This document shows positions 15,997-18,154 of a stretch of 34,042 bases of DNA, piece after piece. Under the pieces are notes generated by a model. It searched no databases, was not told where the DNA came from, and worked only from the letters and a program-made list of their open reading frames with translations. Source of the DNA: a virus (lineage: Duplodnaviria; Heunggongvirae; Uroviricota; Caudoviricetes); the IMG/VR virus record IMGVR_UViG_2571042487_000002, positions 1 through 34,042 of that record; one strand, given 5' to 3'. Position 1 is the first letter of the stretch. Each line of letters starts with the position of its first letter. Both the position numbers and the translations under genes were made by a program.

Positions 15997-16062
15997 ATTG
16001 CTCTAATAATTCCATATTTTTAAAACGTGATGTACACTCATCACGTTTTTTATTAGAGCAAT
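15997..16062. promoter_or_regulatory. Inverted pair of C1 operator-like sites flanking a hairpin
   Basis: 15997-16013 ATTGCTCTAATAATTCC (+) and 16046-16062 ATTGCTCTAATAAAAAA (-) bracket an 11-bp perfect stem AAAACGTGATG/CATCACGTTTT (16022-16050). Confidence 0.55.
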
Positions 16063-16076
16063 CTACAAGGTGCACT

Positions 16077-16295
16077 ATGTGGCCATTCCGACGGAAATAT
16101 CACTACTGGCTGATCGCCTTTGTTACGCCGACCGGCGGTATCAGGCATGTCATCACCAGGTATCGCAACAAGAGACTCACCTTAGCCAGAATTTTACAGG
16201 CTGCCATAGGTGAGGGACTGGATACAAATTGCGTAGTCCTTCCTCCTTCATACTTAGGAAAAATGACCGAAGCACAAGCTAATACGGAACTTTGA
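16077..16295 (+). CDS. Hypothetical small protein (72 aa)
   Basis: ORF immediately downstream of the operator pair; TGAAATG coupling to the next gene. Confidence 0.35.
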   Translation: MWPFRRKYHYWLIAFVTPTGGIRHVITRYRNKRLTLARILQAAIGEGLDTNCVVLPPSYLGKMTEAQANTEL

Positions 16296-16296
16296 A

Positions 16297-17559
16297 ATGA
16301 TCACTTCAGCACAAAACCAATCAATCGAAAATGTATCTATCCCTGACGTCCTGAATGCCGGTATCCCGGCCATTATCCAGAACATCCGGGCCGCGCAACG
16401 CCGCGTTAGTTGTGATGACCTCACAGCGCGTTTTTTTGATAATGCGGTTCAGTCAGCGGAGATGCTTCACGCACAGCTTATTGATGTTTATAACGCAGAA
16501 GCTGATAGCCATAACTCCCTGGTAGATGCAGCTGAAAATATGCAGTTGGATCTCGGTCTGAAGGGTAAAGAAATTGAAGAGCTTCAGCTGCAAATTGAAC
16601 ATTTGAAACGCCAGCAACAGGACGCGATCGACGATGCGACGCATGACGCCAACCAGCGTGCTGATAATGCCGAACGTATAAGCATTGAGCTGGAAACAAA
16701 ACTCAATGAAATGACCGCGATGGTTGAACTGCGGAACTCACAGATTTCAACGCTAAAATCTCAATATAAAGAGATCATGAAACTTGATCCTTTTAACCTT
16801 GAGAAACGCTATAACAAAGCTAAAAGCGAGCGACAGGAACTGCGTAAGCAGGTCGCCGACCTTAACCAACAGCTCAAAAAAACTATTAAAGATGCAAGCG
16901 AAGCGCGCGTGGCATTTGCTAATAAAAAAGCAGAGGTTACCGCGCTGGTTAATGAGAATGCCAAATTTGCGACGCTCAAGAAGGAAATGTATGGCATTAC
17001 TGAGCGCCGTTTCCCTGCAAGCAAACTTCATCCGACGTTAGGGCAAATCTCCTTCTTCCCGCGCCTCCTGGCTTATGGGATCTCATCGCCTAAAGAGTTC
17101 AATAACGAGCGTCCTTATATCGTTTCTAAGCTGGACTTTGCTTATCAGTTCTGCTGCGACATGGGCTATGCCATTGATATCCGGATCAACGAATGGTTGA
17201 TGCCAAACTTCCAGCCGTTGGCCATTTTCCGCGAGTTCCAGCCGGAAGGTTGGGTAGAGTTCTTCCATGAATTGATCTGTAAAGAGATGGAAAGCCGCCG
17301 CCCGGAACTGGTCCGCCGTGTCGAGTGGGCGCAAGAGGTTATGTTGGCAGATGCAGAGCTACCGTTCGAACCGGAATTCATTGATGAACTGGCAACTAAA
17401 GGGTTGCATACCCTGTTTGATGTGGTTACCCGCCGTCATGAGCAGTTGGTGGTCGAATTGGGTTTAGAGGAAACAGCGGCAAGAAGACTTCTCGATGTTT
17501 GCTATGCACGTAGCGATGCATGGGAAAAAGAGAACGGCGGCACTATTTACGTCCGCTGA
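16297..17559 (+). CDS. Hypothetical protein with long N-terminal coiled coil (420 aa)
   Basis: About 230 aa of heptad-like Q/E/K/L-rich sequence followed by a globular C-terminal domain; no NTPase motif. Confidence 0.5.
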   Translation: MITSAQNQSIENVSIPDVLNAGIPAIIQNIRAAQRRVSCDDLTARFFDNAVQSAEMLHAQLIDVYNAEADSHNSLVDAAENMQLDLGLKGKEIEELQLQIEHLKRQQQDAIDDATHDANQRADNAERISIELETKLNEMTAMVELRNSQISTLKSQYKEIMKLDPFNLEKRYNKAKSERQELRKQVADLNQQLKKTIKDASEARVAFANKKAEVTALVNENAKFATLKKEMYGITERRFPASKLHPTLGQISFFPRLLAYGISSPKEFNNERPYIVSKLDFAYQFCCDMGYAIDIRINEWLMPNFQPLAIFREFQPEGWVEFFHELICKEMESRRPELVRRVEWAQEVMLADAELPFEPEFIDELATKGLHTLFDVVTRRHEQLVVELGLEETAARRLLDVCYARSDAWEKENGGTIYVR

Positions 17560-17579
17560 TAGTTACAGTGTCACTTTTA

Positions 17580-17613
17580 ATGCTGGTGGAGTGCGCCCAC
17601 CAGCATTTTTTTC
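17580..17613 (+). terminator. Rho-independent terminator
   Basis: ATGCTGGTGG-AGTGCGC-CCACCAGCAT followed by T7. Confidence 0.65.
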
Positions 17614-17631
17614 GTCCAATGGGGAGGGCAT

Positions 17632-18138
17632 TTGAGTATTTTCAATAAACATGCACACCAGGAACGTCCGTATATCGTCATAGTCGATATTGATGGAACA
17701 ATATCAGAGGCAACTGAAGACAGACTGCATTTGCTTCCGCCACCAGGTAAAGGTGCATTAACAAAGGACTGGAACGAGTTTAATCTCGCCTGTGACACCG
17801 ATACTCCCATCACTCCAGTTATTGATTTGGTGCGCCAGTTATTTAACGTTTACACGGTCTGGTTTGTAACCGGGCGCTGTGAGATCGCAAGGGATAAAAC
17901 ACGAGCCTGGTTGCGGAAGTACGTAACAAACGGGGCTGAGCCTTTGCTATCTATGCGTCCTGCCACCGATGACAGAAATGACGGCCCTGCAAAGATTGAT
18001 CTCCTTAAGAAAATTGGTCTAAGTAAAATCGCGTTCGCGCTGGAAGATAAGATTGAAGTGGCGCGTGTTTTCAGGAGGCACGGCGTACTTACGTTAATGG
18101 TCAGGGAGTATGAAAACGCGCTTCTCCATCAACAATAA
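17632..18138 (+). CDS. HAD-superfamily phosphatase-like protein
   Basis: TTG start with GGGGAGGG RBS; IVIVDIDGTI is a HAD motif I (DxDG[TV]). Confidence 0.55.
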   Translation: MSIFNKHAHQERPYIVIVDIDGTISEATEDRLHLLPPPGKGALTKDWNEFNLACDTDTPITPVIDLVRQLFNVYTVWFVTGRCEIARDKTRAWLRKYVTNGAEPLLSMRPATDDRNDGPAKIDLLKKIGLSKIAFALEDKIEVARVFRRHGVLTLMVREYENALLHQQ

Positions 18139-18154
18139 TTGCTCTAATAAATCT
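18138..18154 (+). promoter_or_regulatory. C1 operator-like site (ATTGCTCTAATAAATCT) overlapping the upstream stop codon
   Basis: 16/17 match to consensus; followed by TTGATT (candidate -35). Confidence 0.55.

Follow-up and report, generated by a model that had tools for sequence, protein, structure and literature searches.

Why should the operators of a phage repressor begin directly on the stop codons of the genes that precede them, and what might be achieved where two such operators face each other across a hairpin? Both questions are raised by positions 15997–18154 of a 34,042-nt Caudoviricetes sequence (IMG/VR record IMGVR_UViG_2571042487_000002), which we analysed in its entirety and refer to here as the window. 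The window represents the final third of a phage-plasmid of the P1/P7 type, with 98–99% identity to P1 and P7; between 15200 and 18400, P1, P7, SJ46, RCS47, and related elements match it at 98–99% identity, and in a window-wide comparison it is colinear with P1 from dmt to lox, apart from a 6.5-kb accessory insert at 19028–25517. We consider it probable, at roughly 80%, that the sites in question are the known C1 operators Op72a, Op86a/b, Op88, and Op94 of such a phage-plasmid, that their adjacency to stop codons comes from tight packing, and that the pmgQ/pmgR gap overlays an operator, a promoter, a terminator, and a second operator.

The identity and positions of the operators are established. 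A search with the consensus ATTGCTCTAATAAATTT, allowing up to 3 mismatches, returned 10 matches in the window, as compared to 0.18 expected from shuffled sequences; all the sites lie within 0–3 mismatches of the asymmetric 17-bp consensus, and they map one to one onto the annotated P1/P7 operators Op72a/b, Op86a/b, Op88, Op94, and Op99a/c/d/e. P1 itself has 22 C1 operators, with an asymmetric consensus (PMC8546580). The bivalent operator of the ban operon, Op72ab (now Obanab), occupies 2305–2332, its two sites starting at 2305 and 2316. Consensus match and P1 annotation together place Op86a (OpmgRa; 15997–16013, ATTGCTCTAATAATTCC), Op88 (OpmgT; 18138–18154), and Op94 (Olpa; 29165–29181) on the plus strand, and Op86b (OpmgRb; 16046–16062, ATTGCTCTAATAAAAAA) and Op99a (Oc1a; 33438–33454) on the minus strand, while Op99c (Oc1c; 33610–33626, minus strand) follows from the P1 annotation. 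The P1 GenBank record AF234172 already annotates all the sites listed in an earlier sequence-only reading of this DNA (Op72a, Op86a/Op86b, Op88, and Op94), giving OpmgRa/b, OpmgT, and Olpa as the “former” Op86a/b, Op88, and Op94 and stating of Op86a that it “controls expression of pmgR and pmgS”; the P7 record likewise annotates Op86a, Op86b, and Op88. The cognate repressor gene is carried by the same element (c1, 32492–33343, minus strand), and its 283-aa product is identical to P1 C1.100 at 282 of 283 positions. The operator system of the window thus has in common with those of P1 and P7 the 17-bp asymmetric consensus, the genomic positions, the flanking genes, and a 99%-identical C1; we see no substantive difference from them, and only the accessory region 19028–25517 sets the window apart. 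The operators, their control of the ban, pmgR–pmgS, pmgT, and lpa units, and the C1 regulon as a whole are textbook P1 biology. As read from the sites, the asymmetric operator would either hold a sigma-70 −35 hexamer (TTGCTC) or sit just upstream of one, and C1 bound there in the lysogen would shut off the downstream unit.

The ORF stop positions confirm the observation with which the sequence-only reading began, that the operators at 2305, 15997, 18138, and 29165 abut or overlap upstream stop codons. The TAA stop (2312–2314) of a dmt-like ORF (50–2314) lies inside Op72a (2305–2321). The TAA of pmgQ (hdmD in P7; 233 aa, 15294–15995, plus strand, from the ORF list and the P1 and P7 annotations) is at 15993–15995, and Op86a starts 1 nt past it. 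The last A of the pap TAA (18136–18138) is the first A of Op88. Finally, pdcB ends in TAA at 29161–29163, and Op94 again starts 1 nt past the stop. To these we add two cases on the minus strand: the first A of Op99a completes the coi stop codon, and Op99c starts 2 nt past the imcB stop. All six window operators that have a co-directional upstream gene therefore start between −10 and +2 nt relative to its stop. The same holds for seven of nine co-directional junctions in the diverged Cronobacter phage JK004 (offset −1 or +1), and Salmonella plasmids show an offset of 0 at the pmgQ junction. Exceptions exist elsewhere in P1, where Oref and OkilA lie 132 and 78 nt past the preceding stop, respectively. 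The offset varies (−10, −1, 0, +1, +2), so that no exact spacing is kept. The more general claim that operon boundaries coincide with repressor sites also stands, AF234172 annotating C1 operators at transcription-unit boundaries.

How much of this adjacency calls for a function? Against uniform placement of the operator within each intergenic gap it is striking (P ∼9e-5 for the P1-type junctions and 3e-5 for JK004), whereas when 70 nt or more are reserved between the operator and the following start codon, P becomes 0.003 and 0.02, respectively. We conclude that stop adjacency is mostly genome packing. P1-type genomes would leave almost no spacer, their gaps having shrunk to cassette size; the operator, with the −35 TTGCTC inside it, would form the 5′ end of the promoter cassette, and it comes to lie flush with the preceding stop because the gap approximates one operator–promoter–leader cassette (about 70–150 nt). 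An AT-rich operator can moreover be expected to supply the stop, either through its own TAATAA or through a first A that completes TAA or TGA. It can still be said that in two diverged P1-type lineages co-directional junctions as a rule carry stop-flush operators, which is a modest descriptive addition to the known regulon.

It is a good deal less probable, and in our estimate quite unlikely, that stop-abutting operators have been selected because C1 stalls RNA polymerase before the upstream stop, yielding non-stop mRNA and tmRNA-tagged products, so that Coi, PdcB, PmgQ, and others would be silenced at a second level as well. In such a scheme the upstream product in the lysogen (notably the antirepressor Coi, and PdcB before lpa) would be made from non-stop mRNA and destroyed via tmRNA where C1 is bound, and at pmgQ/pmgR insulation would pass to a nested terminator upon inactivation of C1. 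The adjacency is certainly close, most junctions falling between −1 and +2, and it recurs in a lineage with only about 70% protein identity. The lysogen-expressed phd-doc-pdcAB operon is also followed by lpa without an intervening terminator: our search for terminator-like sites between pdcB and lpa found none, so that C1 at Op94 may be the only barrier between this operon and the late-gene activator gene. LacI bound at O3 reportedly truncates lacI mRNA, leading to SsrA tagging (a finding attributed to Abo and colleagues, 2000), and lac O3, like the operators here, lies at the 3′ end of the gene upstream of it; in the lac case roadblocking and tagging are part of the account, whereas the likeness here is one of operator position alone, and we treat it only as a lead. 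The unfixed offset, the distant Oref and OkilA, and the ability of compaction alone to explain most of the statistics all argue against selection for roadblocking, and for packing.

In the gap between pmgQ and pmgR, four proposed elements overlie one another. The inverted operator pair around an 11-bp perfect hairpin, noted previously at 15997–16062, is borne out in full: the two 13-nt operator cores (15997–16009 and 16050–16062) are 100% complementary and inverted, and between them lies a perfect inverted repeat (16022–16049, plus strand) with arms AAAACGTGATG (16022–16032) and CATCACGTTTT (16039–16049) and the 6-nt loop TACACT (16033–16038). Folded as RNA, the hairpin reaches −13.4 kcal/mol (z = −6.3 versus shuffles). 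Its T-run (16046–16051) coincides with the low-information tail of Op86b, which is an A-tail on the strand of that operator.

Threaded through the same bases is the promoter PpmgR, which the P1 record itself labels only “predicted”. Its −35 hexamer in the P1 annotation, TTGCTC (15998–16003), is inside Op86a, and its −10 hexamer, TAAAAC (16021–16026), is placed by transfer of the P1 annotation to the window and by comparison of cassettes. The Op86a and Op88 cassettes are identical at 26 of 30 nt, including TTTTTAAAAC, and have the TAAAAC register in common, the predicted Op88 promoter having its −35 at 18139–18144 and its −10 TAAAAC at 18162–18167; in many other cassettes a TAnnnn hexamer likewise occurs 17 bp past TTGCTC. 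Natural variants in which the −10 reads TGAAAC, or TGAAGC in JK004, change its second base, which is normally critical. The first base of the −10 precedes the hairpin 5′ arm, and the remaining five bases of the hexamer are the beginning of the arm; the predicted transcription start, ∼7 nt past the −10, falls within the hairpin loop, and Op86b extends from about +13 to +29 relative to that start. From this geometry we infer how promoter and hairpin may be used together.

The hairpin is best read as an intrinsic terminator serving the operon upstream. Together with its T-run it would stop transcription coming in from the pmgL/pmgN-to-pmgQ operons. Since it spans the promoter from the −10 to about +16, only upstream transcripts would contain it: pmgQ transcripts would hold the full hairpin and U-tract, while those from PpmgR would start in the loop, carry the 3′ arm only and, lacking the 5′ arm, would therefore escape termination. 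The inverted Op86b, just past the predicted start, would serve as a second block. This nested arrangement of terminator, promoter, and operators is a reasonable mechanistic reading of the sequence, and it corresponds to the combined terminator/operator insulator that the sequence-only reading had offered as one option, which fits both the anatomy of the junction and the conservation described below. To insulate pmgR, a morphogenesis gene, from the late promoter upstream would not be an obvious arrangement. Should both termination and the start site prove real, the placement of operator, promoter, terminator, and second operator within 66 bp would give a compact insulator that synthetic circuits could borrow. 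Outside the 1987–1992 operator papers and Lobocka et al. 2004, we did not find the nested hairpin annotated; in Rfam searches at gathering thresholds, three tRNAs were the sole matches in the window, with no other known RNA family.

Like intrinsic terminators in general, including those that overlap a downstream promoter in compact phage genomes, the pmgQ/pmgR hairpin has a stem-loop followed by a six-T run (an 11-bp stem and TTTTTT, four of whose T's are able to pair), a position at the end of a gene, and compensatory change in the stem. It departs from typical examples in the A/U-rich base of its stem, in a T-run that doubles as part of a repressor operator, and in its overlap with promoter bases. 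A simple terminator scan did not call the hairpin at 16022–16049, which we attribute to the four T's having been counted as stem.

The terminator assignment is also supported by evolutionary comparison. Scanning genome contigs for diverged relatives yielded only two near-identical loci, and scanning IMG/VR proteins yielded only copies with 99–100% identity; a DNA-pattern scan for the inverted operator pair retrieved many loci, which represent three lineages only. JK004 and the Salmonella plasmids keep the operator, the hairpin, the T-run, and the inverted operator, with different stem sequences. Among 20 distinct variants, 96.8% of stem cells are paired, as compared to 38–72% in slid controls, and pairing is kept in all three lineages, the Salmonella and Cronobacter lineages having two compensatory pairs, one going from G-C to A-U and one from A-U to G-C, and JK004 two G·U pairs that are compatible with plus-strand RNA. 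Within the P1 clade the polymorphic stem cells show no clear bias toward pairing (7 break it, 10 form G·U). Six T's follow the stem directly and are invariant, and the length of the element is 64–65 nt in all the sequence variants recovered. The 5 nt just past Op86b are hypervariable and serve as an internal control, indicating that the rest of the element is under constraint.

Compensatory change would be no less expected in a palindrome bound by a dimeric protein, and a DNA site for a dimeric phage or host protein at 16022–16049 would, like this one, change its half-sites symmetrically between lineages as the protein co-evolved. We nevertheless regard a protein site in place of an RNA hairpin as very unlikely: the G·T and T·G positions of JK004 pair only as plus-strand RNA, and the invariant T-run directly follows the stem. 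Nor does the palindrome resemble known sites. It is unlike the −22 boxes of P1 late promoters, and the GTGA/TCAC motif within it has a spacing of 10, where 6 is expected for CRP, and is lost in Salmonella-clade variants (L005/L006/L143). Two specific candidates were rejected in this connection, an Lpa-dependent late promoter in the hairpin (the −22 boxes of LPpmgL, LPhot, LPpac, and LP26 differ) and, by inspection, a CRP or LexA site (wrong spacing, motif lost in relatives).

If the palindrome acts as RNA, its main role could still be other than termination. It might be a 3′-end stabiliser or an RNase processing site in a pmgQ–pmgR read-through transcript, with a 13 + 11 bp structure, in which the operator copies are themselves paired, as the substrate. 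The extended fold of 15990–16076 is indeed strong (−26.9 kcal/mol, z = −7.7), and read-through from LPpmgL could provide the late expression that pmgR requires. However, the T-run points to termination, and the pairing of the operator arms as RNA may be incidental because the arms are conserved anyway for C1 binding; we judge a primarily processing role unlikely.

The sequence-only reading had also thought the inverted pair suited to repressor looping, that is, to a C1-mediated DNA loop or sandwich in which Op86a and Op86b cooperate to enclose the promoter and hairpin. Two perfect 13-nt cores in inverted orientation invite the idea, and C1-mediated looping between Op99 operators has reportedly been described (by Heinzel and colleagues, in 1994). 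Centre to centre, Op86a and Op86b are separated by only 49 bp, a very small distance for a loop; a promoter and a hairpin filling the gap between the two operators would explain the 64–65 nt spacing equally well; and at other promoters in the system the operator is either single or bivalent with overlapping sites. No result calls for a loop, and we think one highly improbable at this junction. The intrinsic terminator nested in PpmgR remains our preferred account of the hairpin.

Downstream, the genes between Op86a and Op88 had been taken as a three-gene unit bounded by operators. They are pmgR (72 aa, 16077–16295; ORF list, P1 annotation, PMC9024508), pmgS (420 aa, 16297–17559), and pap (168 aa, TTG start, 17632–18138), all on the plus strand. 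Such a unit is contradicted by a second, strong terminator-like hairpin on the same strand between pmgS and pap (AATGCTGGTGG-agtgcgc-CCACCAGCATT at 17579–17607, then a T-run, 17579–17612 in all), which persists in JK004, there with another stem sequence. Furthermore, pap is absent from the Salmonella plasmids L005 and L006, in which an Op88-type operator follows the pmgS terminator region and adjoins no stop codon. The unit downstream of PpmgR would thus comprise pmgR and pmgS, closed by its own strong terminator, and pap would be an optional add-on reached by read-through. We therefore recommend that pmgR–pmgS and pap not be treated as one operon in interpreting polarity in knockout or CRISPRi experiments.

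The optional nature of pap bears on a further explanation of why genes end at operators. Repeated operator–promoter cassettes might be recombination linkers that shuffle gene modules, with genes ending where cassettes join. In T4-type phages, promoter-early stem-loop (PeSL) cassettes combine a repeated promoter motif with a stem-loop at gene-module borders, and the cassettes here have the same two components at module borders; the difference is that the breakpoints we examined here fall off the repeats. The 26/30-identical direct repeats do flank pmgR–pmgS–pap, the pap insertion ends exactly at Op88, and pmgT, which lies shortly past Op88, is the first gene of region H, a highly variable stretch in P1-like plasmids (PMC9603915). 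Yet on its left the pap insertion is bordered by a terminator and not an operator, and none of the loci examined shows a deletion between Op86a and Op88. We also rejected operators as mosaic breakpoints, the breakpoints in the window versus P1 (19027, 25518, and others) and versus P7 (18385) lying elsewhere. A linker role is accordingly very doubtful, and packing is again the better explanation of the stop-flush operators.

None of the three gene products had been credited with an assigned function, a statement that must be revised for two of them. An essential role has been published for PmgR: knockout of its gene leaves heads and tails unjoined and is complemented in trans (PMC9024508). Pap is, as had been supposed, a HAD-like phosphatase, more specifically a stand-alone HAD phosphatase domain of the PNKP type: it scores 46.6 bits on the Pfam PNKP phosphatase model PF25109, above the cut-off of 27.6, and has a weak match to Pnkp1 (PDB 4xrp). 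The 420-aa coiled-coil protein is PmgS, with its coiled coil in the N-terminal half and a conserved C-terminal half; Pfam, NCBIfam, and PDB sequence searches for its function gave coiled-coil noise only. Both pmgS and pap score as non-essential (PMC10695390), and in P1-like plasmids the 21 most conserved genes include pmgR and pmgS (PMC9603915). The PmgS of JK004 is 69% identical to that of the window, and a distant PmgS-like gene, with 21% identity, is found in a Leclercia plasmid.

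Downstream of the Op88 promoters, the window carries a GC-rich hairpin in a predicted leader (18187-18209, ACATGCCGC-gcctt-GCGGCATGT, -18.5 kcal/mol), which when viewed on the minus strand resembles a terminator with a T-rich tail. In JK004, the diverged Cronobacter phage of P1 type, and in the related Salmonella plasmids, the equivalent place is likewise occupied by a hairpin; because the stems of these counterparts differ and none is accompanied by a T-run on either strand, the comparison suggests that the element is a leader structure of the plus strand. Farther along, between Op88 and the pmgT-like gene, lies a plus-strand ORF for a hydrophobic 28-aa peptide (18237-18323, MNTAFKIIMAAIYFWLFSITFGGIVAHG) that has its own ribosome-binding site and is conserved, with counterparts in JK004 and the Salmonella plasmids. 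The P1 record (AF234172) lists no CDS at this position; the SJ46 annotation places a “membrane protein” somewhere within the region matching the locus. Beyond it, a 6.5-kb segment (19028-25517) that is not in P1 encodes two Ead/Ea22-like proteins and one DUF551 protein, together with several ORFs for which the family search returned no match; it falls inside the variable region that begins at pmgT in P1-like plasmids.

Variation was also found at the pmgQ|pmgR junction. In the contig IMGVR_UViG_2778261417_000008 (L075/L174), TTA replaces the pmgQ stop codon TAA (equivalent of window 15993-15995), leaving the pmgQ frame open across Op86a, the hairpin, and Op86b, and in frame with pmgR. From its sequence this contig is predicted to encode a PmgQ-PmgR fusion; the TTA may reflect either natural variation or an error in sequencing. 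The few nucleotides that separate Op86b from the ribosome-binding site of pmgR (16063-16067) are hypervariable: P1-like contigs that hardly differ elsewhere show TCTACA, TCTATA, TATACA, TCCATA, TTTACA, and TCCAAA, among other variants.

The Leclercia plasmid pE1_003 (L007, 2507-3802) encodes a PmgS-like protein that is only distantly related, at 21% identity. The annotation of this protein states that it contains an RNA polymerase alpha C-terminal domain, and its residues 337-402 give sub-threshold rpoA matches, whereas P1-type PmgS gives no rpoA match of this kind.

A strong terminator-like plus-strand hairpin with a T8 run (2495-2514) occurs in the stretch equivalent to the annotated dicF-like region of P1, with Op72ab upstream and the tRNA-Asn and tRNA-Thr genes downstream. 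Separately, JK004 has two additional operator-plus-terminator composites. In the first (plus strand, 13242-13258 of JK004 stretch L210), a GC-rich hairpin with a T7 run, 3′ of a bplB-like gene, runs into an inverted operator. The second (minus strand, whole-genome 70227-70243, or 20227-20243 of stretch L211) has an operator with a stop codon 1 nt before it and, 3 nt after it, AAAACGCCAA-tta-TTGGCGTTTT and a T-run.
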